64,000 nt of DNA from Takakia lepidozioides (Eukaryota; Plantae; Bryophyta). The notes beneath the pieces are model-generated. The model was not told where the DNA came from and searched no databases. It saw only the letters and a list, made by a program, of their open reading frames with translations. The stretch spans positions 42,160,001 to 42,224,000 of the forward strand of contig CM060732.1 in NCBI GenBank assembly GCA_030704615.1, given 5' to 3'. This document shows positions 1 through 49,599 of this stretch, one piece after another. The translations under genes were made by a program, and so were the position numbers. Each line of letters opens with the position of its first letter. Within the stretch, counting starts at the first letter, position 1.

Positions 1-3000
1 ATCCGCGCCCCTGCTGTGCATGTCCTGCGATCATCACGTTCCACGACACCTCATTTCGCTCAGCCATATTGTTGAACACTCCCTTTGCATCTTCAATGCT
101 CCCACATTTGGCATACATGTCCACGAGGGTATTGTTCAGAATGACATCCGGTACAATTCCAGCTTTGACGATGTCACCATGGATCTCTTTGCCCTTATCC
201 AGGGCTCCCAGGCTTGCACACGCATTGCAAATGCAAACAAACATGACGTGGTCAGGCTTCACCCCTTCTCGCATCATTTGCTCATAGGTCTCCAAAGCCT
301 CTATCCCGTGCCCCTGCTGTGCATATCCTGCGATCATCGCGCACCACGACACCACATCTCGTTCAGCCACATTGTCAAACACTACCTTTGCATCTTCAAT
401 GCTCCCGCATTTGGCATACATGTCCACCAGGGCAGTGTTCAGAATGACATCGGGAACAATTCCAGCTTTCACGATGTCACCATGGACCTCTTTGCCCCTT
501 TCCAGGGCCGCCAGGCTTGCACATGCATTGCAAACGCAAACAAACGTGGCGTGGTTGGGTTTCACCCCTTCCCACATCATTTGCTCATAGGTCTCCAAAG
601 CCTCCATCCCACACCCCTGCTGTGCATATCCTGCGATCATTGCATTCCATGACATCACATCTCGTTCAGCCATGTGGTCAAACAATCCCTTTGCATCCTT
701 GATGTTTCCACATTTGACATACATGTTCAATAGAGCAGTGTTCAGAGAAACATCTGGTACAATTCCAGCTTTGAGGATGTCACCGTGAACCTCTTTGCCC
801 TTTTCCATGGCTGCCAGGCTCGCACACACATTGCAAACGGAAACAAACACGATGATGTCGGGCTTCACCCCTTCCCGCATCATTTGCTCATACGTCTCCA
901 AAGCCTCCATCCCGTCCCCCTGCTGTGCATATGCTGTGATCATTGCACTCCAGGACACCACATTTCGTTTAGCCATATTGGCAAACACTCCCTTTGCATC
1001 GTCAATGCTCCCACATTTCGCATACATGTCCACCATTGCAGTGTTCAGAATGACACCTGGTACAATCCCAGCTTTGATGATGTCAGCATGGACCTCTTTA
1101 CCCTTTTTCAGGGCTTCCAGGCTTGCACATGCATTGCAAACACAAACAAACGTGATGTGGTTGGGCTTCACCCCTTCCCGCATCATTTGCTCATAGGTCT
1201 CCAAAGCCTCCATCGCACGCCCCTGCTTTGCATACCCTGCGATCATCGTGTTCCATGACACCACATCTCGTGCAGCTATACTGTCAAACACTCGCTTTGC
1301 ATCCTCAATGCACCCACATTTGGCATACATGTCGACGAGGGTATTGTTCAGAATGACATCTGGTACAATTCCAGCTTTGACTATGTCACCATGGACCTCT
1401 TTGCCCTTTTGCAGGGCTGCCAGGCTTGCACATGCATTGCAAACGCAAACGAACGTGACCTGGTCTGGCTTCACCCCCTTCTGCATCATTTGCTCATAGG
1501 TCTCCAAAGCCTCCATCGCGCACCCATGCTGGCTGTATCCTGCGATCATTGCATTCCACGACACCACATTTCGTTGAGCCATAATGTCGAACACTCCCTT
1601 TGCATCCTTGATGCTCCCACATTTGGCATACATGTTCATCAGGGCAGTGTTCAACACGACATCTGGTACAATTCCAGCTTTGATGATGTCACCATGGACC
1701 TCTTTGCCCTTTTCCAGGGCTGCCAGACCCGTACACGCATTGCAAACGCAAACAAACGTAATGTGGTTGGGCTTCACCCCTTCCCGCATCATTTGCTCAT
1801 ATGTCTCCAAAGCATTCCTACCACACCCATGCTTGGTGAATCCTGCAATCATTATATTCCACGTGATCAAACCTCGTTCAGGCATTTTCTTGAACACTTG
1901 GTGTGCATCCACGATGCTCCCGCACTTAATATACATGTTGACAAGGGTATTGTATAGAAAAACGTTTGGCTTGAATCCACTTTGGATAATATGAGTGTGC
2001 ACCTGCTTTCCGGCTTCCAGGCCTTTCATCTTGATGGAGTTATGCAAGAGACGGACATAAGTATCTGAATCTGCTGAAATGCCTCCTTGGTTTAAAGTCA
2101 GTAGAGCCTCTTTCAGTTGCTCTTCCTCACATAGCATCCTCACATGCCAAGAAGTGCCAGAAGGGGCATGGTGGACTCCCTCTCTTGGCCTTCTTTCGGA
2201 AGCTCTGGTCATGGTGGACGTGCCTGATTTTATCAATTGTGCTGCTGCTGCTTCCAGCTGGCCATCTACCCATGCAGGTTTCTTGTAGCTATCAATCCAG
2301 AGGAAGTCATAGGTAAACTTGTGCTTGAAATCCGGCCCTCTCAGATGAATCTGGACCCACACTCCATCCCTAGCAGCTGACAATGACAGCCTGAGAACCC
2401 TACTTATGACACTAGCTCCTTTGCTGAATTGCTCCCAAGACTTGAAAGGTGTGATGGGGACTGAGAGGTTGACGATTTCCAAGAAAGCTTTGTAATGCAT
2501 CCTGTTGTCTGCTTTTCTGTAATCTAACAGGCATTCACCTTTTCTCCTCGATTGTCCCACCATTGACTGGAGTCCGAAAAATATTCATCCCAAAGCTTCT
2601 CCTCGTCTATGTTATCTGTTTTTGGATATTTCATGTTGCCACATTGTCAAAATCACTCCAAACCATGACTACGTGCTACTTTGCAGAATTCAACATGAGA
2701 AAACAGTGACTACTCTGACAAGAGAGCAAAACAGGCCGAAATGTGTTGAAGAAGAAGGTACCACATTGTCCTGGACCTTGTGCCATGAAAGCAGCTAGCT
2801 TTTCTTTCACCCACGGTGGATTCAACCAACCATCAACCCAAAAACACCTCTTGTGTGTGATGCTTGGGTCCTTAGTCAGGTGATCTCGGGTTGGTCTGCG
2901 AGAACACAACCACGATGTAGCTGAGCAGCCATAGGTTTAAACACGGCCTCCTAAGACCAAGCTGACCCTCCCAAGCACCTTGTAAACAGCAGAAAAAATG

Positions 3001-3263
3001 ATACTGATAGGAAGAGTCTACATTTGCAGAACGGGTAAAACTTCTTCACATCGTACACTAAGAGGCCACACCTTGCGATTGTCCCACCAATCTGAAGGAT
3101 CTTTAAAAAACTCATGCCAGCGCTGCTCCATGCTCTCCGGAAGGCCTTCCTGCCGGAAAATCCGACAGCCATCAACACTTTGGCCAGTTCCTTTATGGAG
3201 GAGTGCTAGTGAGCTTTCAAGAACACTCATGCAAGTCACATTGGGCTCCATTGGGCTCCACAC
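1..3263 (-). CDS. PLS-class PPR protein with N-terminal OSB-like PDF motifs (3' end outside window)
   Basis: Large exon from 2350 to the window edge translates as IHLRGPDFKHKFTYDFLWIDSYKKPAWV...LCEEEQLKEALLTLNQGGISADSDTYV...GKQVHTHIIQSGFKPNVFLYNTLVNMYIKCGS, followed by ~303-nt P-L-S triplets (LVDMYAKCGSI..A..VF....RDVVSW..MIAGYAQ.G). No minus-strand stop seen in the parts read. Upstream GT-AG exons at ~2539-2634, ~2761-2895 and ~3072-3263. The 2761-2895 exon has an in-frame TAA (2872-2874) and a frameshift, so the true start is uncertain. Confidence 0.88.
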
Positions 3264-3399
3264 AATGAGGAAAGTAGACCATGTCCAAACTACTCAGATG
3301 CTGAACAAAATTGTGTCTATAGTCTGGAGATTTTGCAGTGGTCTGTGAAATCGACCAGGGAGCACTGAGCAGCCAGTCTCACCCTCCCAAGTACTTTCC

Positions 3400-4029: not shown

Positions 4030-5864
4030 AGGACGTAAGCCATTTAGTTTATTAAAGGGAAAAAATAAACCCATTGATACCATAAAGTACTATAATACAT
4101 TTGGAGGATGAGGGATGAGCTGAGAAAGAGAGAAGACTCCGGCCGAGGCCGGCGTAACTAAAAGCCACTTCGCCTTACGGCTACTGCCCCTCTTTCGGGG
4201 GTGGGCCCTATAAAGAAAGTAGGTATCCAGGGGACACCGGGTAGCCAGGTAGGGAGCGAAGCGCCGTGAGGTATATCGCTTTGAAGCATTTATAGATAGA
4301 AGTGATAGGGAGTTTAAAGTTGTTTTGAAGTGCAGAAATGTTGGCATTATGTATACCCCCTCTGGTGCCAGCGGTGATGACAGTAAGCGGGCCTGTGACC
4401 CAACCCCGGCAGCGGATAGCAGTGATAAGTGACGCATATTTTTGGCTTTTTTTTAGGATAGAGGAGCTTGGAAAGCGGTCATGGCAGTATGTAAATTCTA
4501 TGAAGTGTATGGTAATGGCTCTGGAAGGGACAATGGGAGAGGAAGCGTTAATGGGGAGTCCGTAGACTAGTAGGATATCCGGGCATAGTCTAGCGGGGCA
4601 AGTGCATGGTGCGTGAGATCGGCATACACGTTAACCATGTAGGTATTGTATGATCTGGGGGTCGACCTTGGTAGGCGCATGGGATGAGCCCAGACCAATG
4701 CTAGAGAGACTGTTATATAAAATAGCGAGAGCCTAGAATTAACTAGAAAACCATGGAATAAGCCTAAGAGGCCAATGACGGGATGGAATATGGGCGACCA
4801 TTATCGACCAACCCCTTACCATGCAGGGTGCCAAAAAATGAATGCAAAAGTGAGAGTGAGCATACAAAATGGTAGAGACACTACATATGTAACCATAAGG
4901 CTACCCCTTAGACCCTAGCTTGCGAAAAGTTGCGAGTGTGTAGTAGAGCCGACTAGCAAGGAGGTCCAATTTACTTGTCGAACCTGAGCTTCACTGAGCT
5001 CCTTCCCGGGCGGTGCTTCCAGTTAATGTCCTTCTCGAAATCCGGGGGAGTTAGGGAAAAAACGCGCTCCTACCTCCCCAGCACTGAAGGGTTGAACTCC
5101 ATGTACAAGTGTCTGGCGAAGGGCTGGAGCAGAGGATTCCCTGCTTGGCCCAGGAATCTTTGAAGGTCCTGTGGAGAGTAAATTGAGCCTCAGGATGTCT
5201 GGCGATGTATGTAGTCAATTTCAACCAAGCTTTCCTAGCCTTAGTTTGAGCATAGTTAAAAAAACCATAGCCAACAGCATTGAAATCGTGCAATTGAAGT
5301 TGTTAAAGGTCCATTGGCATCTTGTTTTCCATATGTGCCATAGCCCAGCAGCTCTGATTGTTTCAGACGTCTGGCAAGATGATGCAAGATGTTTTGTTGA
5401 TGGATCGAAGTTGAGTAGCAAGGTTGTGGGCGAGAGAGGGGTCGGTGCCCAGGTTCGAAGGACCAAGTTGAGAATAGGCCAGATTTTGGATGGAATTTTA
5501 CAGTAAATGAGGTAGTGCTCAATCGATTCCACCATGTCCCCCAACGAACAACACCTGCATATATATGAGAGCATCTGAGAATTGGAGCCAACGCCAACTT
5601 TGAGGATTCTGTTCGCCACCTGCCAAATGAACGCGCTAATCTTTGCAAGTCTCGTTTTCACCCAAATTCCATTCCAGATTTCTTTCCAATGTTCTTCATG
5701 GAAATTGTAGGGCCTCCATATGACATCCCATTTGGAAATGAGGAGGGGAGAGGCATTGAGGCATTTATAGCCTTTTTTCGCAGTGTACTGGAGGAGTGAA
5801 AGAGACCCACTTGTTCTCCAAGACCACTCTTTTGGATCCAAACTAAGGGCCATAAGGGGCTTGC
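4030..5864 (-). mobile_element. LINE (L1-like) 3' portion: zf-RVT region of ORF2 and probable 3' UTR
   Basis: Translation W..IW......KISAFIWQVANRIL...CRCC....ESIEHYLIYC..SKIW...LWHIWKTRC is typical of the C-terminal zinc finger of plant L1 ORF2. The 3' boundary near a minus-strand AATAAA (~4050) is tentative. Confidence 0.75.
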
Positions 5865-6256
5865 TGTCAAGGACAAGAACATGGCTGAACACAAACAAGA
5901 GATCAGACAAGAAGTCAAGGTTGGCGTGGCCGAATGCACGATGAGTAAATAGGAATCAAGACAATCTTTATAACAATGAACAAGAGTACAAGATATTGGA
6001 ACACGACTTGAATACTGGAATGCTGGAAACTGGGCTAGAGTACTGGAAACTGGAAACAAGAGTAGCTTGAACTGGTGTACAACTCCAATGTATCTGGTTC
6101 CTGCGACTCCATACTGCCAATACAAGATGCAAGAGTGCTGGAAGTGTAGCTATATATACTGATGTGTGGTGTTCATCCTTCCTTAGCGTGTATCAGGTAC
6201 ATTGAATGTGGAGTCTTCACCTTGAAGCTAACTTGACTGACATCTGACATCTGACA
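5865..6256 (-). repeat. 3' LTR of the chromovirus (U3 differs from the 5' LTR)
   Basis: 5865-~6078 aligns with 11807-~12066; the remainder is unrelated to the 5' LTR but has its own TATATATA (~6151). Inner boundary near the CTGACAT repeats is approximate. Confidence 0.75.
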
Positions 6257-6558: not shown

Positions 6559-7520
6559 ACACGAGACCAGGTGTGTAGTTTAGGCCACCTTCACCTCCTG
6601 TGTCTTCTACGGAAGGTTCTGATTGGGATTGTGAATCAGGAGGATTCATACCGGCGGTGCAAGTTGTTTCCTTGCTATTGTTGTGGGACACAATGGGAGA
6701 GATGTATGGAGCTACCAAGGGGCCACGAAGGTACTCTGGGGCAGTGGGCACCATCAAGTTGGATGATTTTATCCAAGAGTTTGATAGTTGGTGTGATTTG
6801 CAGCAAATGCGCAATCCACAACTATTTACGCCTTTCATGGCATGGAAGGGGTTGTTTCAGCACCTTGAGGGGCCGCCTATGGACGATTACCATGAGTTCA
6901 GGCGGGGGCATGAGGTTGAGATCGAGGAGTGGAGGATGTACTGGTCACCCGACTATGTCTCCATCACTAGGGGCACTAGAATCACGAGGGCAGTGGCTAC
7001 ATCTGTCGTTGCACCGGCAGCTTCAGCAAGCAGCAGTGGGACTAGTAGGACTGGTGGTATCGTAGCTACGACGTCCACCCAAGCCACTACCGCACCAGCA
7101 CCAGTACCCGTGCCTGCCTTCAACCATGTTGTGAAGTTCTTCGAAGAGTTGAGAGGGAACTACCAAGAAGTTGCGGAGCAAGAGTTCCAACGGAAGCCTA
7201 CTGAGAGCTTGAGGGAGGCTTTCACTCGCATGAGGCGATTGATAAATGTAACCCAAGGGGTTACAGAAGCTCAGGCAGTCCAATTCTAGTATGGGCTTTG
7301 ATTCAGATGAGGACTCAAGATCTCTGGGAGGCAGGTTTGGTGGAGCTCTCTGGTGGAGAGTATGCTTGAGCCACAGTGATGCCAGCCAAGAATGATGTCT
7401 ATGGCAATTGGACGGAGAGACGTATGTGCGGTGATTACCGGCCTGTAAATCGTCAGACCAAGTCCGATAAGTATGTCATGCCAACACCAGAGGAGATCTT
7501 TGATGCCATCGGGCATGCTA
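6559..7520 (+). mobile_element. Captured gag + RT fragments of the DNMT-bearing gypsy family, inserted in the chromovirus integrase
   Basis: 6559-~7292 is paralogous to the gag at 20120-20850 (LLWDTM.EMYGATKGPR.YSGAVGTIKLDDFI.EFDSWCD). ~7293-7520 is paralogous to the RT at 15625-15855 (ATVMPAK.D.YGNWTERRMCGDYRPVNRQTKSD). No LTRs. Confidence 0.85.
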
Positions 7521-10500
7521 AGGTTTTTAGGGAGTTCAATCCGAAAACTGACCGCATTTATTTGTCGAATATTTTTGAATGGTCCCAGGCGTTGATAATC
7601 CAACTTCCTTGATGGTCGCGAGGTTTGTATATCCCGTCGAAGAAGCCACACACAATCTCCGACCTTGAACTGGGGTTGGAGTTGGCGGCGTTGATCTGCA
7701 TACTCCTTGTATTGTTTTTGAGCTTCTGCGAGGTGGGATGTAAGCTCCTTGTGAATCGTAGCAAGATGAGTAGCAAGGTTTTCTGCAGCAGGGCTTCCAA
7801 CAGTCTTCATGTGGAAAGGGTTTGCTCGAGGATGATGACCATAATTGGAGAAAAATGAAGTTTGCTTGGTCGAAGAATGTATAGTGTTGTTGTAGGCAAA
7901 CTCAGCCAATGACAAAAGGTCCGTCCAATTATCTTGGTGATAATTTATCGTACAGCGAAGATACTGCTCCAAAATCTGGTTTATACGTTCGGTTTGAATA
8001 TCAGTCTCTGGATGATTAGCTGTAGAGAGGTTGATCTTAGTATCCAATATGTGAAATAATCCCCTCCAGAAATTTGATATGAACTGTGGTCCTCGATCAG
8101 ATACGATGTCCTTCGGGAATCCATGAATGCGGTAAATATTATTGAGGAAGAGTCTTGCAGTTTCCTCGCCGGTAACCGTCTTATTACATGGAATGAAATG
8201 TGTCATCTTCGTAAAACGATCTACAATAACAAGGATTGAATTGGTGGTCTTGGAGGTTGGAAGGTCCGTAATAAAGTCCATAGACACGGACGACCATGGA
8301 CCCTTGGGAATGGGTAATGGTTGAAGAGGGCCGAAAGGTCGATGTCATGGTCCTTTCGCTCTAGCACACGTGTCGCAAGATTTTATAAATTCTTTCACGA
8401 GTTTCCACATCTGCGGCCACCAATAGTCCCTGGATATCAATTCCATTGTTTTGTTGAAGCCGAAATGTCCTGCAACCGGAAGATCATGACACGTTTGAAG
8501 AATTCGAAGTCGTGTAGGTCCTGGAGGTACATAGAGAAGTCCCTTGAAATAAAGTAAGTCATCTTTGAACTCGAAGTCGTTTGTAACATGTGGGTTATCT
8601 CGTTGTTGATTTAGTTGACTTTGTAGTGTGGTAGCAAATTGGTCGTTCTTTAGTGCTTCCTAAATCTCCTTTATGATCTCTGCATCGTCATAGGTGGACA
8701 TGGATAGCCTATTCAATTGGAGATTTACTGGTTTCAAGATGATGGATTTTTGTTGGTCAAAAGCTGCATCCTCTTCTTTTGGCGCAAGATACGATCGTCG
8801 AGAAAGAGCATCTGATTTTCCTTGAAGATGTTCGGGACGGTAGGTAATAACAAAATCAAACTTTGCTAGTGACATACTTCATCTCGCTTGACGTCGATTC
8901 AAAACACGAGCACTCATAAAATACTCGAGGTTTTTATGATCGGTATAGACAGTGACCTGATGTTGAGCTCCATCCAATAGATGACGACACTCTTCAAAAG
9001 CATCGATAATCGCTAGAAGTTCTTTGTCATGGATTTCATAATTGATCTCCGCAGCGGAAAATTTGCGAGAACGAAAACCAACAGGATGAAGTCGGTCATC
9101 TGTACCGTATTGAGAGAGTACCGCGCCAAATGCAAAGTCCGATGCATCTGCTTCCAAAAATAATGGTTTAGATGGATCTGCATGTACCAGTATTGGAGCC
9201 GTTGTAAATGCCTGCTTCAGTCTTTCAAATGTTTGGTCAGCCTTCTCGTTCCATACAAATTTGTCCTTCCCTGTGAGTCGTGTCATTGGTGCAGCAATTT
9301 TGGATTAGTCATGGATGAAGATTCTATAGAAATTTGCAAATCCTAGAAAACATTATACATCTCGGACCGAAGTTGGTTTAATCCACTCGATGATGGTTTG
9401 TATTTTCTTCTGATCCATAAAGACTCATTTGTCGGAAATAATGTAGCCCAAAAATTTGACTTCAGATTGGTGGAAAAGTCATTTTTCCAACTTGGCATAT
9501 AGTTTTTTTTCTCTCAATTTATCAAGGACAAGGCGTACATGGCGACCAGGTTCTTTTTCATTCTGTGAAAATATCAAAATGTCGTCCAAATAGATGACTA
9601 CAAAGTCATCTAAAAATTCTCGAAAGATGTCATTCATCATGTGTTGAAAAATTGTTGGAGCATTTGTAAGACCGAAAGGCATAACACTGTATTCGAAATA
9701 TCCATACCTTGTGCGAAAAGCAGTCTTCCATTCATCTCCTTCTTTTATTTGTACAAGGTTGTAAGCTCCTCTCAAGTTGATATTTATGAAAAAATTTGCT
9801 CGTCTAAGTTGTTCAAGGAGTCCGGAAATCAGCGGTAGTGGGTAACAATTTTTTACAGTGACTTTGTTGAGCCCACAATAGTCCACACACATGCGTAACG
9901 ATCTGCCCTTCTTCTTCACAAATAAGATAGGCGCTCCCGCGGGTGATTTTGAATGTTGAATGAAATTTATTGACAAATTTTCATCAATGTATTCGCGTAA
10001 AGCAACCAGCTCCGTCTGAGATAAATTGTAGATTGGGCCGAATGGTGGTTGAGATCCTTCTTGCAACTCAATTGCACAATCATAAGGTCGATGTTCTGAC
10101 AAAATGTCTACATTTTTCTTCTCGAATGCGTCCTTGAAATCTTGATATTGAATGGGTAATGTCGAAGTACCTTAGTATGTTGTGGTTTTGATCGGAGTCG
10201 CATAAAGTGCAAATGTCGCGTCTTTCTTCGTAGCTCTCATGAAGGCTTTAGCTCCAAGAAACAAGGGTTGAATACCTTTGGTACTTTTGCATTTTTGTCT
10301 TGCCGAAATTTTTCGTGATCGCCAGTCGATGTCAGGATTATGAAGGACAAACCAGGGAAGTCCAAGGATCACACGATTCGTTGGAGACTGGATGACATTG
10401 AAAACAATCTGTGATGCTTGATTTTTAAGCTTCACTTCAAGGGGTCGAGTTTCATGGTCAATATTCCCTGATGCTAACGGTCGTCCATCGATGACTTCAA

Positions 10501-10750
10501 CAGGGGCCGAGAATTTCTTTCTTACGAGCGTTAAATTGTGTTGCTTCGCAAAGTCTTTGTTAATAAAACACACTGAAGCGCCGAGTCCAAAAGTGCTTCT
10601 ACGGAGATGTCTCGATTTTGCATCCTGATCTTTATTGGAACTATGAAACAAGGTACAGGGTCTAGAGGTAGAAAAAGATTTTTTTTTTTTTGAGGAAATT
10701 GGGGTGTCCAGCCGCATAGTCCCTACTGTGACTGGACATCTTCGTTTTTC
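7521..10750 (-). pseudogene. Chromovirus pol (protease-RT-RNase H-integrase), frameshifted
   Basis: Protease (...ASVCFINKDF...VILGLPWF), RT (SPAGAPILFVKKK...LRMCVDY...YLDDILIFS), RNase H (EADASDFAFGAVLSQ...NYEIHDKELLAI...TDHKNL), integrase (SMDFITDLP...VSDRGPQF...HPETD.QTERINQ, GPF motif). Confidence 0.93.
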
Positions 10751-11768
10751 GACCTTCTCGTATTGAACACTTGAGTGGTGCCCCGAGTTTTGAATCTTCT
10801 CTTGTTGGGGCAGTTTAATGCCATGTGAGCCTCTTCTCCGCAATAAAGGCATAATCCATTCGAGCGCCATATTTGTTTTTCTTGTGGCGTCAATGGCTTG
10901 AATCGGACAGCATCAATCTGCATATGATCATTACTGGATGTCTGATGGATTGTTGTATTTGGTGTCGTAGTAGCAGCGGCATGGTGCGTCGTCGACCATC
11001 CAGATCGTTTATCTTGACGTCTTTCGAACAAACGATTATCGCATGCAATGACTTGGGTGATGAATTCGCTCAGTGTACTCACGTTTGGCATTGTCAGCAA
11101 CAAATCATTAACATCCTCTTTTAGGCCACATCAAATTGACTAATGAGGCTCTTCTCATTCCAGTCGAGGTCGCACGCAAGTTATCGAAATTCGGCAGCAT
11201 AAACGGAAGCTGGACGTGCTCTTTGTCGAAGATTTCGCATCTTTGTCTTAGCAACTCTCTTTCTATCATTCTCTCCAAATATTGCAGTAAACTCGGACAT
11301 GAACGCTTCAAAATTGTATAGTAAATGCGAATTTTTCTCTGATAGCGGTGCAAACCAAGATAGGGTAGTGCCTGATAGAATGGTGCCCACGAATCCCACT
11401 TGAATACCTTCATCAGAGTAGCGTTATGAATGTAGTCGTAGGAACAATCGTACTTGTTGAACAAAACCGCGAAATCTTGATCTCGTCCCATCAAATTTCT
11501 CGGACATGCTGACCTTTGGTTCCCTTGTAATCTGTTGAAGATTTGGAGGAACCGTTGCTGTAGGATTTCTTGTAGTAGGGACTCGTAAGGTTGAAGATCC
11601 ATTGTTCGACTCCTTCAACTCTGAAATTTGTTGTTGCAAATTGTTGAGAGCATTGTCAAGGTCTTGAGACTGATCAGTTTGTAGTTGGGCAATAGAGGCA
11701 CGAAGTTCTTGCATCTGGAGCTGAAGACTTTGCAATGTGGCGACCATTTCCGCAAATGTGCCTTCCAT
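10723..11768 (-). pseudogene. Chromovirus gag
   Basis: Coiled-coil N-terminus, EPKVSMSEKFDGTRSRFRGFVQQ, LRQRARPASVYAAEFR, MQIDAVR and zinc knuckle CLYCGEEAHMALNC; split by stops. Confidence 0.88.
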
Positions 11769-13674: not shown

Positions 13675-13871
13675 AATAGCTTGCTCAGGGAGTTAGAGGC
13701 ACTCTTGGTGGCCTATTAATGCTCAAGAAACCAAGAACAACACCTCTGGTTACTCCATAGAAGCCATAGCTCGTTGCAGCAATCGCAGAGGCAAAGCGGC
13801 GCAAACCCTAGCTTGGGAACGCTTGGGAACGCGTGTGAACTCCTTAGGAACTCAAGGGAACGCGTGAGAAC

Positions 13872-14450
13872 GCCCTCACACAAAGCCTGAAACTCCCCCG
13901 AGAACTCTCTCCCCTGGTCCGTGAGTACCTCGGCTGGAGCTCCAAAATCGCTAAGCACTCGATCTAAGAATGCATACGCAGCCCCCTCACTTGCCTTGTC
14001 AGACAATGTCACCAGTTCAATCCATTTGGAGAAGTGTTCCACCAACACCAACACCAACACATACTTGTTGTGGCGAATCGTCAATGGCAATGGGCCTGCG
14101 AAGTCAAGACTCCAACGATAGCCCAAACCCATAATGGGTAAATGATGCAATTGTGGAGTAGGGGCGTTGAAAGAAGCCCGCACTCTATCACACATCATGC
14201 ACCTTGCCACTAACTGTTGCACATCTGTGTGCATGCCCCGCCACCAATACTGCGCTTGCAGCAAACTATGAGTGCGCCGCACCCCAAAATGTCCCAACTC
14301 CTCATGGGCATGGCGTACGCGCTCGTTGTGTTGGATGAGGCACAATCCTCACTCGTCCATCCTCCTATACCCGGAGTAGGTAAGTCCCCTCCCACTTGAA
14401 CATCTTGGCTCGTTGTAGGACTCGATCCCTCTCCTTAGCAATCACACTGG
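13872..14450 (-). pseudogene. Integrase N-terminal half (H2C2 + core) of the DNMT element
   Basis: HAHEELGHFGVRRT...YWWRGM...CMMC...WSLDFAGPLP...EHFSKWIE...VLTDQGREFSGEF, cut at the inversion breakpoint. Confidence 0.9.
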
Positions 14451-14628
14451 CTGCTGTCTCTTCGGTACGAAGGTATGCCAACACTACTGCATCTTCATGC
14501 ACATTCTTAGCACCACCAAACTCCTCACTAGTCTCTGGATCATCATGCACGCTATCTACATGACCAATCGTATGGGATGGACCAGCTTGAGCTCCCATTG
14601 CTAGAATGCACAAAAAGGCCGATGCATG

Positions 14629-15957
14629 TCATCCTGGCACCATCTCCTCATCCGTCTTCCCATGCCACCGAGCTTTAGTATCATCATGCTCGCTCGTGCA
14701 TGGATTACGACTCAATCCATCTGCATCCCGATTGACAATACCGGCTCGATGCACCACCTGGAAGTCGTACTCTTGAAGCATAAGTGCCCACCGTGCAAGC
14801 TTCCCTGTAAGCTTGTCTGACTCCATCAACCACTTCAATGGTTGGTGATCCATGACAAGGGTGAAGAGATTGCCATAGAGGTAGCATCTGAAATGTGCCA
14901 CTGCCCATATTGCAGCTAGACACTCCCCTTCATAGGAACTATACTTTGCCTCGGCATCATTGTTTGAGCGGCTAGCATATGCCACTACGAACTCTCTTCC
15001 CTCACCATCCACCTGTGTGAGCACTGCTCCAATCCCCAGCATACTCCAATCCGTATGTAGCTGGAAAGGCCGCCCCCGAATAGGCCGCCTCAGAATATGT
15101 GCAGAAGTCAATCGAGCCTTGAGTTCCTCAAAGGCTTGCTCCTGCTTCCTCCTCCCACTGCCACTCCTGACCCACCTTGGTCAACTTGGTAAGAGCCTTT
15201 GCAATGCTGCTAAATGCCTTGACAAACCGTCGATAGTAGTTTGCCAATCCCATGAAAGCACAAACTCTGCTCACATCCATGGGGCGTGGAATGCATGCAA
15301 TGATCTCCACTTTTGTCTATTGAAAACCCAATCCTCTAAGGTATATCATGTGGCTCAGATACTCAATCTGATTGTGGAAGAACTTGCACTTTCCGGGATG
15401 CAGTTTCAACCCGTGCGCTACCGAGCGAAGTCTAGCCCCACAAGAATCCTATCCATGACCCTCTGAAACTCTGCAGGAGTATTCTTCAACCCAAATGGTA
15501 AGAACCGCCATTGGTACAAACAATCCTTCCCATATTGGTCAATCCCCCAGAATGCCGTCTTTTGCTTGTCAGCCTCTTTGATTGGCAACTGGTGGTAACC
15601 GGATCGCAAGTCCAATGTGTTAAACACCTTTGCATGCCCAATGGCATCAAAGATCTCCTCTGGAGTTGACATGACATATCTATCGGACTTAGTCTGACGG
15701 TTCACAGGACGATAGTCCCCACACATCCTTCTTTCGGTCCAATTGCCATAGATATCCTTCTTAGCTGGCATCACCGTTGCCGAGGCATACTCCCCGCCTG
15801 ACAACTCCATCAATCCAGCTTCGAACAACTCCATAGTCCGTGACTGGATCAATGACCTCTTCATGTCACTATACCGGTAGGGCCTTCGAAAGATTGGCGT
15901 GTCACTTGCCAAATCAATACAAATCTCCTGACCCTTCAAACTATCCAAATCCTTCAA
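14629..15957 (-). pseudogene. Reverse transcriptase and RNase H of the DNMT element
   Basis: PIFRRPYRYS...RRMCGDYRPVN...LDLRSGYHQ...PFGLKNTPAEFQRVMD; GLANYYRRFV; LHTDWS..GIGAVLTQ...YASRS...YEGECLA...DHQPL...LARWAL.LQEYDF. The YxDD segment appears deleted near 15415. Confidence 0.92.
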
Positions 15958-16489
15958 TCCGAAGGCAAAGCAATTCTTATAAGCCCTTAGAAATCGCTGG
16001 ATCCTCCGTCTCTCTCCTCCGGTGACTGTAGGTCCAACATCTGGTTCCCAATTGTCCTCAGTGACTGCAACCTTGGGTACACCAGGCTTGGAGGTATGAG
16101 ACGAATCCTTTGGTTACTAGATAGCAACCTCTTGGGCCTTGTCCGCCCAATCTGACTGTGGCGTAGCCTCCACTTGCTCCGCCGTAGCCACCTTCAGAAC
16201 ATCCTCTGAGCAAGAAACATTCTCAACCTCTTCAAAAACCTTGGCCTCCAACTGATCCTCAGTCCATGGCTCTCCCCACTCCTCATACTGCTGCTTGAGA
16301 GATCTAATGACTCTCTCTTTGCGCATCTGCCATGGGTGTTTGCAACCCTCGATCCTGTGCTCGCCCCCACTCACTGCCTCAACCGTTCCGGTTGGCAGGG
16401 AGAATGCACTATCCAATGGGAGTGCAGAAGTAGCCATCAATGCTTGCAATCTCCGTTGCTCAGCCATGCACAAGCCAATTATCCATGTC

Positions 16490-17420
16490 AAGCAATTTAG
16501 ATCCATTGCTTGACCCAACATGTGGCGGCGTGATGCCTCTGACAGAGCTGACACATCTGTAGTTCCGGTGACAAATCCCATTGCCCGCTCTCCCTCATCC
16601 GCATTGGGCTCATTGCTGTAGCACATTGTCCCAAATCAACCCAGGACCATTGTCTCGGAAAGCATGAGACGAGGGAAAGCTCATGAGCGTAGGCAAGGCC
16701 GCACGTGGCTGCCCCACTTGATTGACCACTGCTAGAGGTGGACGGTCATCATGTCGCACCCTCTATGGTTATCTCCCTTGGTCCAAAATGCCCTCAACCG
16801 TGAGATTGGGTGACCGATGAATGGAATTGTATGCTCTCTTGAGCAGCTCTGGTGGTGCAAGATTGGTCCACCACAATCGAGGTCGATGCAAGCATGATCC
16901 CACCGCTGCTGCATCCAATAGCACAGCCGATTCAATCCAAGACCGCACCTGATGCACACTGGCCATTACCCTGGCCCGAGAATCCCCCATAAGAGGAACA
17001 TTCTCCAAGATATAGCCTAGAGGTTGCACTTGCCTCGTCTGAAGTCCCGCAACACTCGCAACATCTCCCAAAACAAATGCGATCGTGCATCATGCAAGCC
17101 ATTCCCATGACCTGCAGGAGGGTGTCCTTGGCAAGGCCATCCGGCTATCACCAAGTCAATGGAACCATGCCGCTGCAAATCATCCGCCCCCAGCAAAGTA
17201 ATGTCTGTTGGCAAGGCCTTTTGATACCCTTGAACTGCTGAGAGAGGCAACAACTCAGGATACCAGTGTGTGAGCAAGGCAATGTGGCGCATGGAAATAC
17301 GCCGAGCAATCTCATCCTTCTCCACATACAAATATTTGCGTACTTTAATCCCTGCTTGCAACACTCCTGCAAGCCCAGTGCTCATGCCTCCAAACAGGTC
17401 TAGCAAACAAATCCCTGAAT
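16490..17420 (-). pseudogene. DNA (cytosine-5)-methyltransferase catalytic domain, DNMT3-like, within pol
   Basis: Motif I LDLFGGMSTG (~17380-17400), II YVEKD, III DIT, IV DLVIAGWPCQG (17125-17142), LFWE..R, VI ILENV (16997-17005), VIII HRPRLWWTNL (~16859-16888), IX ERAMGF..GTT, X RRHMLGQAMD (~16500-16530). One frameshift near 17050, another near 16630, and two stops near 16763-16771. Confidence 0.92.
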
Positions 17421-17829
17421 CAGGTGGTTGCCAGGTAATGGGCACTGTGTCCAAAGGAGCTAACTCAGGAGGTCCAGGTGATGTCACTGAACTCCCCTCA
17501 CTCATCAATGGAAAGGCCTGCTGCCATGCTTGGTGCACACACTCACCTGCTACTCGATGCAAATTCCCAACCGTACTCCACAGTGGAATATGCACAGGCA
17601 CATGAGGAAGCAGATCAGCCTTGTATGCCAATTGTTTGTCATCATTAGGTGATGGCCCATCATCTGCATGGCTATTGCCCTCCAAGAGCTCACCACCCCA
17701 AGCCACTACCCTTGAAAATGCAGCCAATGTGGGCATCATGTTCATTTGATCCACCGCTACATTCCCAATAAACCACACTGAGAGCAGTGCACGTCGACCA
17801 TCTCCTGACTGCCATTCCGGCCTATAGGA

Positions 17830-18140
17830 TGCCGTTTCCTCCCAAAAGTCCAAAGTAAAGCCCATGGGGTATAACACAGCCCCACCAACAAGCACATCAT
17901 AGGACATCGCATCCGTAACAATGGCTTTGGCTCTCATGACTGAGCCATCCGTAGGATGATCTAGCTGCAATCGAATGAAGAGCTCATGGCGTGTAATCCC
18001 TCGTGCCTTATCTGAACCACCCAAAGATGTTTGAATTTGGAAAGGGCAAGGCTCCAAATCCGCCTCTATAAGGCCCAAACCTGCAATTGCTACTCTTCCC
18101 AATATCAATGGTTATGCTCCCGGGTCCAACAAGACCCGTA
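17830..18140 (-). pseudogene. Retropepsin-like aspartic protease of the DNMT element
   Basis: RVLLDPGA*PLILG (D-[S/T]-G-A site, degenerate) ... YDVLVGGAVLYPMGFTLDF, in frame with the downstream MTase. Confidence 0.75.
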
Positions 18141-18939
18141 GTGGCCTATATTTCCTTCCGGCTGGGCCACCCAACTGAAACACACCATCCTGATTGTCCA
18201 CCAGGACTACCCCAAGAGTCACCATACAACGTTCAATGGCTGGTCTAGCTGACAACTCCTGCAACCTTGCAGCTGCCGCTTGCCATGGTGCAGCTGTGGC
18301 TGTCTTCACCCTTGAGTCCATGACATCCATGCACTGCACATTATCCGCTATCCCCGCAGATAGTGCCAATGCATTACCACTCTCACAGAGTCTAGCTGCT
18401 AGTCTGAACATAGCAGCTCGCCGAATCCCCGGCATTGCAATGGTCATCGCAGAAAACAATGGAGCTTGGCAAACTGCCGTAGCCGCCCCCAACAATGTAC
18501 TAACTGCACCCTGCTTTGCAGCACCACCCACTGGCATTTCCCGAGCCACGTCACCAACTCTTCCCACTGGTACTCGTGGCTCTACCTCTGATATACTTCG
18601 GTGAGCGGGTACCATTGATGGCGTAGTTGGCACTGTCTCAGCCAATGTGAAAGACTGTGGAAGCCTTGTCTGTCGACTTGCTTCCCATCTTTGTGGATCA
18701 AAATCCACATCTGCTCCTCTTGGCTCAGAAGCACGCGTTGTTGCTCGAGTGATAGCAACTGCAGAGTCCACATGCAATGGTCTTGCAAGTGCGGCTCCAC
18801 ACATGAAGCCCGTACCAATCTGGTCTTCCTTAGGCATAGGCGGTTGTGCAAGTAGGGCTTGAACCTCAGGCCTTGGAGCTGGTGCAATATGCGTAGTGGC
18901 CATGGTAGCAAGACGTTGCTCTAGCTGGGTATCTACCAT

Positions 18940-20907
18940 GCCTTGGTCATGACCTTGACCTTAACCTTGTGCTCCCTGGTTTTGGTTACGACCTCCACCG
19001 CGATCTCTGCCTCATCTACCTCTCTGGACTACATTGTCTCGTTCTCGGCCACCATTGTTCCCTTGGAACTGGCCTGGCCGTAGCTCAGGATGCAAGTCAT
19101 AACAATGGGCCTCCTCATGTCCATACTTGCCACAATGTCCGCACTGTAGTTGTGTAGGTTGTGCCTGTACCGGCCCTTTGTCTCTCTCCGGGCAATCTCT
19201 CTTAACATGGGGTCCTCCACAATCCCAACATGTCATACCCGACTATTGTTGGCCAGAGAATGAAGGAAGTGACCTCTGAAATTGAGATCATCTCTGTCCT
19301 TTCCTGGGCTTTGTCTGAGCCCTCTTGTTGCCTTGAGCACGTTGGGGTAGTGGTTGTTGTTGGCTAGGAGCCCCGCTTCATTGTGTCTCCTTACCAAACC
19401 CCACCATGACCACTCGCTCCTCCACCATATTGAGCTCTATCCGCTCTGCCAGCAAAAACACGTTTGCTAAGGTGGGTTACTGTCAAGGACGAGAATATGA
19501 CTAAACACAACAAGAGATAAAACTAGAGGTACAAGGCTAGACAAGAAGTCAAGGTCGGCGTGACTGAGGGCACGATGAGTAAATAGGAATCAAGACGATC
19601 TTTATAACAATGAACAAGAGTACAAGATATTGGAACACGACTTGAATACTGGAATGCTGGAAACTGGACTGGAGTTTCAGATAACTGGGAACTGGAAACA
19701 AGAGTAGCTTGAACTGGTGTTGGCGAGACTGAAGAGTGTCCAAACTCGCCTCCTATATATACTGGCTACTAAGAAGCTTCCCCAAGAAGCTTCCTCTATG
19801 GAGGTTTCTTGCTGGAGAAGCTTCCAAGATTAAACAAAGGTTTCTTGATGGAGAAGTTTCCTCCAAATGAAGCTTCCTGAGTAGTTTCCCAAGTTACTCT
19901 TGGTAATTTGGTAAACTCTCGGTAACTTGATAAGTAATGGTAAATCATGGTAGATCATGGTAAATCACGGTAAGTCATGGTAACTTCCGATAACATGGTA
20001 ACTTGATAACTTCTGGTATTTACTCCTGGTATGTTCTTCTGGGCTATGTCCGTGACAGGTTGGTCCACTTGTAGGAGAGTTGCATCCCGCACCCTTCTCC
20101 TTTGCTTCTTGTCTAATATCCCATACCAGAATTGGACTGCTTGAGCTTCCGTAACCCCTTGGGTCAATTTATCAATCGCCTCATGCGCGTGTAAGCCTTT
20201 CTCAAACTCTTAGTAGGCTTGCGCTATAACTCTTGCAAGCTCTGCAATTTCTCTATCATTATCCCCTGGTAGTTTCTCCTCAACTCCTCGAAGAACTCCA
20301 CAACTGGGTTAAAGGCAGGCACGGGTGCTGGTGCTGTAGCAGGAGCTTGGGTGGATTTCCCAGCTCCATCTTTACTTGTCCCACTACTAGTGCTTGTAGT
20401 TGGGGATGTTGGTGTAGCTACTGGTATCGCCGCTGCCCTTATGCCTCTAGTGATGGAGATATAGTCAGGTGACCAATATTTTCGTCACTCCTCAATTCCC
20501 ACCTCATTTCCCCACCTAAACTCATGGTAGTCATCCATAGGCGGCCCCTCAATGTGCTGAAACAGCCCCTTCCACGCCATAAAAGACGTAAACAGTTGTG
20601 GATTGCGCATCTGCTGCAAATCACACCAACTATCAAACTCATGTATGAAATCATCAAGCTTGATGGTGCCCACAGCTCCCGAGTACCAACGTGGCCCCTT
20701 GGTAGCTCCATACATTTCCTCCATCGTATCCCACAACAATGGCACGGAAATGGCTTGCACCCTCGGCGAGAATCCTCCTAACTCTGAATCTGAACCTTCC
20801 TCAGAAGACACTGAAGGTGAAGGTGGCCTAAACTGCACACCTCGTCTTGTATACCCACAAGTATCGCTAGTGCTCGTACCGGCACTATCCTCAGCAACTG
20901 GTGGCAC
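18940..20907 (-). pseudogene. gag of the DNMT element (interrupted by a solo LTR)
   Basis: IKLDDFIHEFDSWCD..., VTEAQAVQFWYGILDK, and two zinc knuckles CWDCGGPHVKRDC and CGHCGKYGHEEAHC (~19090-19230). The frame QVDQP|TLANVFLLAERIE rejoins across the solo LTR. Confidence 0.82.
19481..20057 (-). mobile_element. Solo LTR of the chromovirus family
   Basis: TGTCA...TGACA, collinear with 11807-12403, no internal sequence; imperfect flanking duplication (GGTTAC left, GGTTGG right). Confidence 0.9.
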
Positions 20908-40600: not shown

Positions 40601-41950
40601 AACAAATTAGGCTAACAGGGCCTTGGGTGGTTTTCAATTGCTTGTGGGTGGGTATGGGAAACAGCGGATGTTATGTATGACATAGGTGCAGGATTAGAGG
40701 TTTTGTCGCCGATGTGCCCTCAGCACTTTCTACCTGTCGCTGGCATGGCCAACCTTGCGAAGGTACTCTAGGTGTCTATCTGTCCTTCTCTTCCTTCAGG
40801 CTTACTCTGGTTTGCTTGCCTTTTCTTTACCCTAAAGGTGATTGTTGACAAGTGGAACTCTTTCAGGGGATGGCACTGGTTTCGGCAAGGGCAACGAGGT
40901 TGCCAGTATATTCATCTTTTGTCAAAGAAGGCAACCTGAGTGATTTATATGCTAAGGGAGAAGCAATCTCAACACTATCTAATGTACTGGGGCTCGGTGT
41001 GGGAATTCATCTGGCTTCTAACTTTGGTGCTTCCATCCAAGGAAAGGTATGTAGCTCTCTGCCTCTCTTATTATTGTTCCTGTTGGCAGTGTTCAAAAGA
41101 ACCAACTCTAACTCCTCGAGGTCCTCATGAAACCTTTTCCAAACTTCTTTGCTCAGAGGCGATTTACTGTGGTGATGTGGCAGTTGTTATTGGCACCTCT
41201 GCTTTCAGCCATCCATTTGTATAGTGTGACACAGGAGATGCGGGCAGCCCCTATCAATACACTCAATGCACAACGCACTGCCATGCTGGTGGCTGACTTT
41301 ATGAAGGTCTCCTCCCTCTCTCTCTTCTGGAGGTTCTCCATTTTTATGTAGCTCTGGCGCTTCGAGTTTGTCTCAGGTTTTACAATAACTGAAGTGATTC
41401 CATCCCATAAAGTCTGTATTACGCATGTATTTATTTGCGTGAGAGGAGGGGAGTATTGACAGATGACAATTGTGGTTGCATGGTGCATGGGGAGGATCTG
41501 CAGACTGGCTCTGTTTCGCGGCCTGCCGAACTCCGGTCCAGAGAACGTCTGATATTGCCGGTCGGACTGCACGAGGATGCTGGAAACGTACAAGTCGGCG
41601 TCCCTCTGTGTAGAGCCATTGGTACACCTACAAAACTTGCTAAGGTAAAACAGAGGTTCCAAAATGAACGGTTTTTGTTGAGCTTTGGGGAGAAGTCAAC
41701 AGACCTGGTGTTACACCAATTAGCAACAGGGGAGGATGCTGTCCGTGGTTGGTTGTTGGCTGCCCACGTTGCGAGACTAAGCAAGGATACAGAGCACTTG
41801 AGTGGCTGTGAGGGAGCCTGCGGAGCGGTCTTAGAGCAAGCATACAAGGAGACAGAGATACACCTGCCAGCTCTTCTTTTGGGACTGAGAGAGCATGGTT
41901 GGCACACCCATTTATTCCTGGAAGGTTCTGGGGTGCGAGCAGTATGGTGA
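37642..41950 (+). CDS. RUS2: ROOT UVB SENSITIVE 2-like (DUF647) protein
   Basis: Spliced translation FLSRFFPLGYPHSVAEGYLAYSQHRAVQHFASAALSVLSTQ-SLLFAAGLRPTPAQATIVSW-VLKDGMQHIGKLVCSSMGARMDSEPKRWRIF-ADVMYDIGAGLEVLSP...ARATRLPVYSSFVKEGNLSDLYAKGEAISTL...PINTLNAQRTA matches RUS2/WXR1 as I recall it. About 9 exons; start codon uncertain (37642 or ~37909). Confidence 0.88.
39500..39760 (+). mobile_element. Non-LTR RT fragment (CRE/RLE-type motif) in a RUS2 intron
   Basis: IILSFS...HQGNPLGGLVFAMAH resembles the QGDPLG..LFAL RT motif; frameshifted and short. Confidence 0.45.
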
Positions 41951-43959: not shown

Positions 43960-44270
43960 GGAGCCCTGGAAAACGGCAAAGAGGTGCAGCACCATGAAAG
44001 CTGGAATTGCGTCCTATATGAGTTTGGAGAATAGCGCGAAGACGGCGCGTCAAGTGTTCGACAGTATGGCTAAACGAGAGTTCGTTAATAGCACGATATG
44101 CTCAGCATGGGGAGGCTACGGAAGCTTTCAAGATGTATGAGAAAATGCAACAGGATGGGGTGACGCCCGACAGGGTCACATTCACTTGTATTCTCAATGC
44201 ATGCGCCTGAGAGCTCTGGAAAAAGGGAAACAGGTCCATGATGACATCCGGAAATATAGAATTACAGTAG
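43960..44270 (+). pseudogene. PPR gene fragment
   Basis: ARQVFDSMAKR, YAQHGEATEAFKMYEKMQQDGVTPDRVTFTCILNACA, LEKGKQVHDDI with deletions. Confidence 0.78.
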
Positions 44271-46918: not shown

Positions 46919-47199
46919 TTAATCCTTTAGATGGACCTAAACCTCTTCCTCCCTTCCCAAATCTATAGCAAGCTCACGCAGACGCACACACAATGGTAAG
47001 CCGCTCCAAAGACTCAGTTTATATAGTGACTGAAGGCCAAGGCCTTAAACAGCATACTGATAAACATAGCTGCTGTTGTGCACTATAGTAGTGTCCACAG
47101 ATTTTTCTTTTCTTAAAAAAAAGAAAAGAAAAGTGTCTTCAGAGTTTTCTTTTCTTTTCTTTTCTCCAAATTTAGATATGATGCAGTTCCAGTTTTGAT

Positions 47200-49070: not shown

Positions 49071-49599
49071 CAGAACTTGATAAAAAATGCTAACTTTGCC
49101 AGATTCTGATTGGGGCAGTCTCTCTTGTGCGAGTGTAGCTTCAGAGACCATTTCAGCAAGTCTCTTTCTATTCCTCATACCCACAGCAAACATGAAACAA
49201 GGGTAACTACCAAGCTAGATTGATTGCCACTCATATTGACATTCCTCTAATGGAGCTCCATGTTCACACCAGAATGATAGCCATACAATGACATCCATCC
49301 ATGATGACATTTTGCTGAAAATGGAGTCAAGGTAGCTAGCTCTGCAAGCAGCATTTAACTGACTTCCAATTCAAAGCACCTTTTTCGTATACTGTCTGGT
49401 AATCTTGAGTTTTTCATGAAAAGCACCACACTGCAAATGGGCAGCAATAGTTTAACTACCACCTTGTATAGACCTGGCTATAACCACAGAAACTCTACAA
49501 GCGAGAGTCTTTTGACAAGAGTCTGCCACAAAACAACTTCAAGATACTGTGGATTCACAAAAATCATCTGACAAAAAACCCAGACACAGATCATCAATT

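Follow-up and report, generated by a model that had tools for sequence, protein, structure and literature searches.

An OSB-type PDF motif in frame with a PLS-class PPR array in Takakia lepidozioides: a partly decayed locus from an ancient family of seed-free plants

We analysed a window of 64,000 nucleotides from Takakia lepidozioides (assembly GCA_030704615.1, contig CM060732.1, positions 42,160,001 to 42,224,000), at the start of which a minus-strand gene, named locus 1, joins PDF motifs of the organellar ssDNA-binding (OSB) type to a PLS-class PPR array. The array (1–2140; Pfam PPR match with an E value of 5e-89) is composed of a degenerate lead helix pair, an L and an S motif, six full P-L-S triplets and the beginning of a seventh. 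Its triplets (35-35-31 residues) have their code residues at position 5 and at the last position, with canonical pairs such as N/D, T/N, T/D and N/N. The array is preceded by a low-complexity linker (2141–2242) and by the C-terminal half of a PDF motif (PDFKHK...LW....P.WV, 2243–2350), recognized by its profile score; the WV of this motif lies 110 residues from the first S motif (MY.KCG), compared with 94 in the main subgroup of relatives. All these elements belong to one exon, exon D (2350 to 2), which has 783 codons and no stop. Its open frame exits the window, and the C-terminal end of the gene (E/DYW) lies beyond the edge. The closest protein matches of locus 1, from Sphagnum and Diphasiastrum, show 37–43% identity.

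The N-terminal half of the same motif, PDF2, is encoded by exon C (2539–2615; 29.2 bits) and is separated from exon D by a 188-nt intron (2351–2538) of phase 0, with the donor GT after 2539 and the acceptor AG before 2350; the same motif position is kept in other species. The original prediction of this GT-AG splice, bringing the PDF motif in frame with the PLS array, is thus borne out by the intron and the open exon D, as is its claim of a second, damaged PDF copy upstream. The latter, PDF1, is broken by an in-frame TAA codon (2874–2872) and a frame change ahead of its LW..P.WV block in exon B (2762–2895), which holds the PDF1 C-half, a linker and an in-frame ATG at 2786; an assembly error is conceivable at a T run in this exon (2844–2840). 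The PDF1 N-half (W..FF..P..WWDNR.K; 28.8 bits) is found in exon A (3072–3145), which ends at a phase 0 GT donor and, by comparison with the paralogous loci, would start in phase 1. PDF1 is split by a 176-nt GT-AG intron (2896–3071), read from the sequence and approached at 3073 by paralogue joints, and the two PDF modules are separated by a 146-nt GT-AG intron of phase 1 (2616–2761). Further upstream lies a faint third C-half exon, PDF0 (3240–3342), with an AG acceptor five codons before its PD dipeptide, a phase 0 start and a phase 1 end. Its protein score is weak (4.3 bits, equalled in 5 of 2000 shuffles); its DNA alignment exceeds all 300 shuffles against exon B and the C-half of locus 2, but not against exon D.

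The window carries two further PDF-PPR loci, both pseudogenes. Locus 2 (47170–49820, minus strand) retains two PDF N-half remnants, one C-half and PPR frames with stops and shifts, and locus 3 (52320–55660, plus strand) a PDF N-half remnant, a PLS array and a decayed E1-E2-DYW end of PG-box type. These loci, the PDF0 half-exon and the exon B-to-C splice come in addition to the features predicted originally.

The assignment of the motif to the OSB type holds against a profile built only from OSB proteins (21 PDF motifs from OB-fold-bearing OSB-type proteins): spliced PDF2 scores 76.0 bits over profile positions 1–57, while the best of 1000 shuffles reaches 11.2. Its two halves score 33.1 and 38.7 bits singly, and PDF1, read with an X at the break, 57.6 bits. 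PDF2 keeps the near-invariant W, P, WWD.R, K, PDF, KHK, LW and P.WV, except for the Pro before WW, which is present in 92% of motifs and in nearly all paralogue contigs and is replaced by Ser in PDF2 (codon 2571–2569). PDF2 is also net acidic (8 K/R, 12 D/E). Across the family, the invariant residues W, D, R, K, P-D-F, L-W, P and W are equally conserved in 80 PPR-fused and 271 other motifs, and the basic residues of the OSBs, namely the R and K that follow WWD and the K-H-K that follows PDF, show 85–100% conservation in the PPR-fused copies. In the available parts of the papers on OSBs (PMC6963530, PMC6451138), the PDF is the ssDNA-binding part of these proteins and ssDNA its sole reported ligand; the literature searched contained no account of RNA binding by a PDF. 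The Pfam scan placed the PDF halves and one PDF-only protein in no family and gave no SSB match on the window frames scanned, and the C-half alone, a query too short to inform, had no database match at E ≤ 10. No OB-fold was detected in 19 PDF+PLS representatives or upstream of the PDFs within the window.

Expression of locus 1 was considered with contigs from two sequencing runs that are RNA only by a program's guess; none of the runs listed as carrying the sequence is on record as RNA. These probable-RNA contigs cover the exons and leave the introns almost bare. Among the 15 of 28 joints listed, two show a net skip of 188 nt at the predicted 2539/2350 junction with paralogue letters alongside (2333 to 2539 plus 17 letters, and 2352 to 2546 plus 5), and none is a mismatch-free 2350–2539 joint or a joint from exon A to exon D. 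A near-identical contig of 129 nt, with 2 differing letters over 77, joins 2762 to 2615 in frame. Further joints fall on sites that break the frame, such as 2363 to 2539, and no contig bridging a PDF exon and the PPR repeats was found.

Locus 1 is partly decayed: PDF1 is broken, the conserved Pro of PDF2 is changed to Ser, and there is no clear transit peptide. In-frame ATGs are present at 3251, 3230, 3131, 2786 and 2634 with no clear leader, as judged without a targeting predictor; in many relatives, leaders of 40–140 residues precede the PDF. Since the transit peptide is not clear and the Pro is lost, the locus may be dying. On the other side, the PDF copy adjoining the repeats is intact, while the two upstream copies are broken (PDF1) or faint (PDF0), and exon D has accumulated 93 repeat-private changes with a pN/pS of 0.46–0.62 and no stop, for which the probability by chance is 0.02–0.05. 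A product could arise by in-frame skipping of exon B, from exon A to D or from an upstream exon to C, or, alternatively, by a start at ATG 2786 or 2634, which would give a protein without a transit peptide. We consider it somewhat doubtful that the locus still yields a working organellar protein, and locus 1 is a poor object for testing PDF-PPR function.

The gene had been taken for a lone chimera. Instead, a PDF is found at the N terminus of 33 of 120 PPR homologues from liverworts, mosses and clubmosses, always before the repeats. Fern members were found in further searches. By these sequence comparisons, the PDF-PPR proteins are a large and ancient family in seed-free plants. Among the named matches, the PDF is present in none of 58 proteins from seed plants and in 20 of 29 from seed-free plants, 9 being without it; no hornwort protein was among these matches, which came from searches not directed at hornworts. 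As the searches were seeded with a seed-free query and the sequences are related, this contrast is not an independent test of a replacement by MORFs. A search of 1.84 billion proteins gave 1583 matches, of which 132 new proteins among the best 150 were classified; the total is not a census of PDFs, since the profile took in a stretch of PPR.

The members share several features. The intron position within the PDF is conserved among relatives, and 47 of 86 proteins, isoforms counted, have exactly 94 residues between the PDF and the first S motif (Calypogeia, Sphagnum and Diphasiastrum). Elsewhere the spacing varies, as at locus 1, in a second Diphasiastrum group (103 residues) and in Ceratodon, where it is likewise not fixed. 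The HSE deaminase signature is present in at least 13 of 50 PDF-PLS proteins, as counted by a simple pattern on sequences many of which are fragments; several relatives end in intact DYW domains, and the expanded groups sit in lineages rich in editing factors. The copy adjoining the repeats is the best kept in six of eight multi-PDF proteins, all six from Diphasiastrum, and the reverse is seen in the other two. PDFs also occur in long PDF-only arrays without PPR repeats. The complex thalloid liverworts, for which no editing is reported (PMC5295000), include Riccia, in which a PDF-PLS protein lacking E/DYW is found.

A quick tree search on the E/DYW side, limited to rows with the E-region pattern, groups 13 PDF-bearing proteins, those of Calypogeia, Sphagnum and Diphasiastrum included, in a starred clade (SH-aLRT 99); the PDF label changes five times on this tree, and two of these changes are forced by starred branches. 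In the tree of the motif itself (76 rows, 60 columns), a single unstarred group takes in 39 of the 44 PPR-fused motifs, and locus 1 PDF2 is unplaced; this tree has too little power to settle how many fusions took place. One PDF-bearing protein of Ceratodon (M758_7G001800), the likely PPR_45 orthologue, shows 67% identity over 1051 residues to a protein of Physcomitrium that is devoid of a PDF and groups with Funaria PPR 45. In Calypogeia relatives of PPR_45 that lack the PDF, any remnant of it scored 4.4 bits or less.

OSB proteins carry the same motif of about 55 residues, in single or tandem copies, as the family of locus 1. By definition they have an OB-fold-like domain at the N terminus and PDF domains at the C terminus (PMC13393729), and they have no PPR, whereas the PDF-PPR proteins start with their PDFs and continue with a PLS array. 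The P-L-S triplets with canonical code are common to locus 1 and the PLS E/DYW editing factors of seed-free plants (such as PpPPR_45, 56 and 65; PMC9459714), with which relatives of locus 1 and locus 3 also share the E1-E2-DYW end; these factors are drawn with only a transit peptide upstream (PMC9459714), where the PDF-PPR family adds intron-split PDF modules. An extra nucleic-acid-binding domain likewise precedes the PPR array in RRM-PPR proteins such as PPR4 and in the PPR fusions with MORF, RRM or RanBP2 (PMC13386178), but the catalogued fusions mostly combine an RRM with P-type repeats, and here a PDF, which has no Pfam model, is combined with PLS repeats. The architecture seems undescribed, as originally supposed: it was absent from the literature searched, a 2026 survey of OSBs (PMC13393729) does not mention PPR, and a 2026 survey of editing factors (PMC13386178) mentions neither PDF nor OSB. 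Zaegel et al. 2006, Gutmann et al. 2020 or supplements may hold it. Such proteins are easily overlooked because the PDF has no Pfam model, the motif is split by an intron and OSB surveys retain only OB-fold proteins.

In the AlphaFold model of a homologue from the 94-residue subgroup (P0155), the PDF and the repeats are predicted as one confident unit (pLDDT 92.8, pTM 0.82). Its repeat part superimposes on a synthetic PPR-DYW/RNA structure (PDB 9KFX) with a Z score of 25.2 and an r.m.s. deviation of 1.8 over 205 aligned residues, and the PDF appears to pack against the first repeat, as judged from scores and secondary structure rather than from contacts. Modelled alone, the PDF has a pTM of 0.61, and its best Z score among 48,161 chains (PDB and viral predicted structures) is 2.2. 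Foldseek with this model gave no match at E ≤ 0.001, and the ESM Atlas no usable match, which does not imply a new fold. A zinc ribbon, a WW-like and a dsRBD-like domain, considered as candidates, found no support in the fold searches.

The family members are likely organellar C-to-U RNA-editing factors whose N terminus carries between one and three PDF modules of the OSB type. PPR arrays read RNA from N to C along the 5′-to-3′ direction, so that the PDF would lie at the 5′ side of the recognized sequence and the DYW deaminase at its 3′ side. We favour, at slightly less than an even chance, the reading that locus 1 is a partly decayed member of this family, in which the PDF acts as a sequence-nonspecific single-strand clamp beside the RNA target. 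The PDF may raise affinity or prevent pairing at the site, helping in cis much as MORF and ORRM proteins help in trans in seed plants, as an enhancer and not as a requirement. MORFs are restricted to seed plants (PMC13386178), a group in which our searches returned no PDF-PLS protein. MORF9 increases the RNA affinity of PLS arrays, and boosts of RNA binding or editing are reported for MORF9 and ORRM1 (PMC12733224); a similar effect of the PDF would imply no homology to these trans-acting proteins. The PDF module is a two-exon unit with phase 1 at its start and end, which makes tandem duplication or in-frame skipping possible. Against a clamp, the Physcomitrium protein of the PPR_45 cluster has no PDF, PpPPR_45 supports rps14-C2 editing and moss DYW proteins edit unaided in E. 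coli (PMC9459714). The PDF-less seed-free matches, the Riccia protein, the variable spacing and the acidic PDF2 are also counted against it.

The PDF could instead tether the editor to the nucleoid: it would bind organellar ssDNA, for instance the strand displaced in transcription bubbles or R-loops, and park the protein at nascent transcripts. That ssDNA is the only ligand in the available parts of the OSB papers agrees with such a role, as does the association of many PPR proteins with nucleoids (PMC10226603, as far as available), and the tandem copies and long linkers of locus 1, one Diphasiastrum group and Ceratodon would suit a flexible attachment. We nevertheless find it rather unlikely: a spacing of 94 residues in three lineages and a model folded as one unit exceed what a tether needs, and the PDF adjoining the repeats is the best kept both at locus 1 and in the six Diphasiastrum proteins, the two reversed cases apart. 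The constant distance in the oldest subgroup is more in keeping with binding beside the RNA target than with a loose attachment. The predicted packing on the first repeat might also denote an N-terminal cap that stabilizes the first repeats, or a docking surface for OSBs or editing factors, with no binding of nucleic acids; many invariant residues are aromatic and may serve core packing, and PDF2 of locus 1 is acidic. We hold this to be improbable, as the basic OSB residues are kept in PPR-fused copies and PDF-only arrays have no repeats to cap. More doubtful still is a PDF serving a non-editing task of PLS proteins (intron splicing, RNA stabilization or genome maintenance) and merely inherited by editing members. 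It would account for the protein retained in Riccia and for the limited count of deaminase signatures, and the moss PLS/DYW proteins PpPPR_9, 31 and 43 are splicing factors (PMC9459714), but the expanded groups in editing-factor-rich lineages, the intact DYW ends and the E1-E2-DYW end of locus 3 speak for editing. That OSB exons captured once upstream of a PPR gene spread by duplication as a neutral passenger is very improbable in spite of the frequent decay or loss (PDF0, PDF1, loci 2 and 3, Physcomitrium PPR_45), since a motif that is nearly unchanged wherever it is fused to PPRs, in liverworts as in ferns, and a conserved spacing require long purifying selection.

Moss editors are described as bare PPR-DYW proteins that need no helpers. 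A conserved, unannotated, putative nucleic-acid-binding module, present on a large share of the PLS proteins of seed-free plants, gives a specific answer to the question of how these plants manage thousands of editing sites without MORFs. Beyond the clamp itself, one may speculate, though we think it unlikely, that PDF-PLS-DYW was the ancestral, self-contained land-plant editor: its OSB-derived clamp would have been gained near the origin of editing to aid loading on nascent or structured RNA or R-loops, would have fuelled the seed-free expansions and would have been replaced by MORFs in seed plants. If so, the PDF would lend itself to raising the affinity of engineered PPR editors. The PPR_45 pair of Ceratodon and Physcomitrium is a likely natural plus/minus comparison in a knock-out-ready system, and the PDF-PLS fusion connects the organellar DNA-maintenance machinery of the OSBs with that of RNA editing.

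The focal PPR gene lies on the minus strand at the start of the window, and its 3′ end falls outside it. Exon D runs from 2350 to the window start as 783 open codons and encodes the C-terminal half of the second PDF motif (PDF2), a linker and the repeats. The latter, with canonical code residues, comprise one L and one S motif, then six complete P-L-S triplets and the beginning of a seventh. The splice from 2539 to 2350, by which the original prediction united two PDF half-motifs, is present in the sequence as a 188-nt phase 0 intron inside PDF2, bounded by GT on the 2539 side and by AG on the 2350 side. The damaged upstream copy, which the original prediction also described, is PDF1, composed on the same strand of exon A (3145–3072, first half) and exon B (2895–2762, C-terminal half); the latter carries a TAA at 2874–2872 and a frame change before the last conserved block. 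The 176-nt intron between them cuts PDF1 where PDF2 is also cut. A faint third C-terminal half exon (3342–3240, minus strand) scores 4.3 bits, a value equalled by 5 of 2000 shuffles, and its DNA aligned to exon B scores above 300 of 300 shuffles. Since the PDF modules of this gene start and end in phase 1 and are cut internally in phase 0, two in-frame routes past exon B are allowed; neither is found among the 15 of 28 joints listed from the contigs of two presumed-RNA runs.

The motif itself was assessed with a profile built from 21 PDF motifs of 20 OSB-type proteins without PPR. Spliced PDF2 scores 76.0 bits over profile positions 1–57, its halves alone 33.1 and 38.7 bits, and PDF1, with X at the break, 57.6 bits, against a top score of 11.2 in 1000 shuffles, which upholds the identification as an OSB PDF motif. 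All near-invariant residues of PDF2 are retained except one Pro replaced by Ser, a site where paralogue contigs carry a Pro codon nearly everywhere (45 contigs, run X1). Used as query, the two PDFs of a homologue from a clubmoss matched 115 proteins; these include named OSB1 and OSB3 proteins as well as liverwort and angiosperm proteins with an SSB domain. The isolated PDF is modeled as a helix, short strands and a helix (pLDDT 78.7, pTM 0.61), and fold searches with this model gave no match (best Z 2.2).

PDF motifs were also observed in other settings. Long PDF arrays without PPR (P0237, P0249, P0236) comprise 9 and 7 copies in dinoflagellates (Effrenium, Cladocopium) and 13 in Kingdonia, so that the motif is not restricted to green-plant OSBs. 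Six short intronless metagenome proteins ending in a PDF (P0131, P0148, P0157, P0162, P0186, P0205) have a hydrophobic N-terminal helix and neither PPR nor OB-fold; P0157 has no Pfam family. P0210 combines a PDF motif with a precomputed match to PF12513, which we take to be the SUV3 helicase C-terminal domain, and may represent either another fusion or an assembly error.

The proposed chimeric factor is a real fusion but not a lone one: among the 120 of 140 PPR homologues listed, 33 exceed 20 bits on the OSB profile and two more carry a partial motif, the best of the others reaching 1.3 bits. The PDF is always N-terminal to the repeats. In these 120 it is present in 20 of 29 named seed-free matches, 13 of 33 unnamed matches and none of 58 named seed-plant matches (40 gymnosperm, 18 angiosperm), a contrast that is a pattern without a statistic because carriers of the PDF were favored by the query and the sequences are interrelated. 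With a broader profile search, 132 new representatives were obtained: 63 with OB-fold and PDF, 50 with PDF only and 19 with PDF and PLS repeats; 18 of the last were looked up, and the 15 that are named are all seed-free (Diphasiastrum, Selaginella, Sphagnum, Riccia, Adiantum, Pteridium). The Calypogeia and Ceratodon carriers came from the PPR-homologue search. Unspliced metagenome gene calls break where the motif intron sits: 12 frames with the N-terminal half only run into K then V (GT donor), and Q (CAG) stands six residues before the PDF in 6 of 17 frames starting inside the motif. Each of the window's three long PPR arrays is PDF-bearing. The PDF-PPR family is old and widespread.

It is also apparently unpublished, as originally supposed. 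No description of the PDF-PLS architecture was found in the main texts of the openly available full-text literature. The 2026 OSB survey admits only proteins with OB-fold and PDF together and, in its accessible text, does not mention PPR (PMC13393729); the 2026 editing-factor survey catalogs domain fusions, with no mention of PDF, OSB or single-stranded in the portion available (PMC13386178). The accessible parts of a moss PPR review (PMC9459714) and of a 2025 synthetic-PPR review do not mention PDF, and those of a 2023 review contain no mention meaning the motif.

Two sequencing runs, RNA by guess, were mapped as contigs on 2200–3200. The 576 and 204 contigs are mostly 90–95% identical to the locus and therefore mainly paralogue-derived. 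Their depth is high over the PDF exons and near zero mid-intron. For the 2539/2350 junction, two of the 15 joints listed (of 28) show a net 188-nt skip, with paralogue letters adjoining it. A 146-nt phase 1 intron is bridged in frame, from 2762 to 2615, by a 129-nt contig that differs at 2 of 77 letters; other joints of the 15 listed use out-of-frame sites. No contig of the two runs covers a PDF exon and the repeats together; the PDF C-terminal half and the repeats form one shared exon. Depth and joints indicate that members of the family are transcribed and that their splicing follows the prediction; exons B and C are transcribed from the focal locus or a very close copy.

The focal copy is doubtful. 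It shows decay (the PDF1 stop and frame change, Ser for Pro in PDF2) and no clear transit peptide was seen at the locus. Exon D is free of lesions over 2349 nt, whereas the other two PDF-PPR loci, at 47170–49820 (minus) and 52320–55660 (plus, ending in a decayed E1-E2-DYW), are both broken pseudogenes. The 93 changes of exon D private to a single repeat give a pN/pS of 0.46–0.62 without a stop (neutral chance 0.02–0.05). That the locus is functional is a serious possibility, slightly the lesser one; otherwise it is a young pseudogene. In the zone 2–7 kb upstream, a LINE-type zf-RVT fragment (5221–5955) and a Ty3/gypsy pol with integrase and SH3 domains (7286–10912), both on the minus strand, may have removed its first exons.

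The window holds several other features. A C-5 cytosine DNA methylase segment (17017–18111, minus; Pfam DNA_methylase, E 1.7e-07) sits in a gypsy-type element (~13700–18960), upstream of the RT frame (RVT_1 15421–16113); Klebsormidium retrotransposons reportedly carry a methylase, as de Mendoza et al. are said to have described in 2018. The last exon of a ROOT UVB SENSITIVE-like gene (41411–41950, plus; UVB_sens_C, E 5.9e-07) and SERRATE/ARS2-like exons (59958–61816, minus; ARS2, E 5.4e-25) were identified. A short isolated PLS-PPR fragment (44079–44207, plus; matching the focal gene at 58% over 43 residues) is a fourth PPR remnant, and a 362-codon open frame with Gly/Pro/Phe-rich repeats and no Pfam family (45830–46918, minus) lies directly 3′ of the second PPR pseudogene.

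Counting isoforms, 47 of 86 proteins share a distance of exactly 94 residues between the final WV of the PDF and the S motif that comes first; they belong to one liverwort, peat mosses and one clubmoss. The distance is 103 in a second clubmoss group and 110 in the focal gene. In an E/DYW-side tree (67 rows, quick search), one starred clade (99) groups 13 PDF-bearing proteins, with members from all three genera that have the 94-residue spacing, and another (98) groups 7 Diphasiastrum proteins. On this tree the PDF label has to change 5 times, with 2 of the changes forced. The PDF-motif tree lacks resolution; a single origin with many losses is allowed. In the focal gene the copy adjoining the repeats is the best preserved. 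The same holds for six among eight multi-PDF proteins, each of the six belonging to Diphasiastrum, and the other two have the opposite pattern. Together with the spacing in the oldest subgroup, this suggests that the PDF works with the PPR array. For P0155, of the 94-residue subgroup, the model of PDF plus repeats (pLDDT 92.8, pTM 0.82) suggests a fixed arrangement of the two; its repeat part overlays the synthetic PPR-DYW/RNA complex 9KFX (Z 25.2, rmsd 1.8, 205 residues).

In OSBs, the PDF is the part that binds ssDNA (available text of PMC6963530 and PMC6451138). PPR binding has a known polarity along RNA, which would put the PDF on the 5′ side of the target, where it may strengthen binding as a single-strand clamp without sequence specificity. 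A nucleoid tether is less probable, and a structural or docking role is unlikely. Still less likely is a non-editing RNA role, despite a Riccia protein that has PDF and PLS repeats without E/DYW and comes from the complex thalloid liverworts, for which the accessible text of PMC5295000 gives editing as unreported. Over 1051 residues, a PDF-less Physcomitrium protein shares 67% identity with a PDF-PLS-E-DYW protein of Ceratodon; the Physcomitrium protein clusters with Funaria PPR 45, and we infer it to be PpPPR_45, the rps14-C2 editing factor (PMC9459714, in part). Because of PPR_45, the PDF cannot be essential for editing; that it is a neutral passenger seems very improbable. The nonspecific clamp, a tentative reading that comes close to an even chance, would be analogous to MORF9 and ORRM1, boosters of seed plants (PMC12733224, as far as available), where MORFs, according to the accessible part of PMC13386178, are confined.
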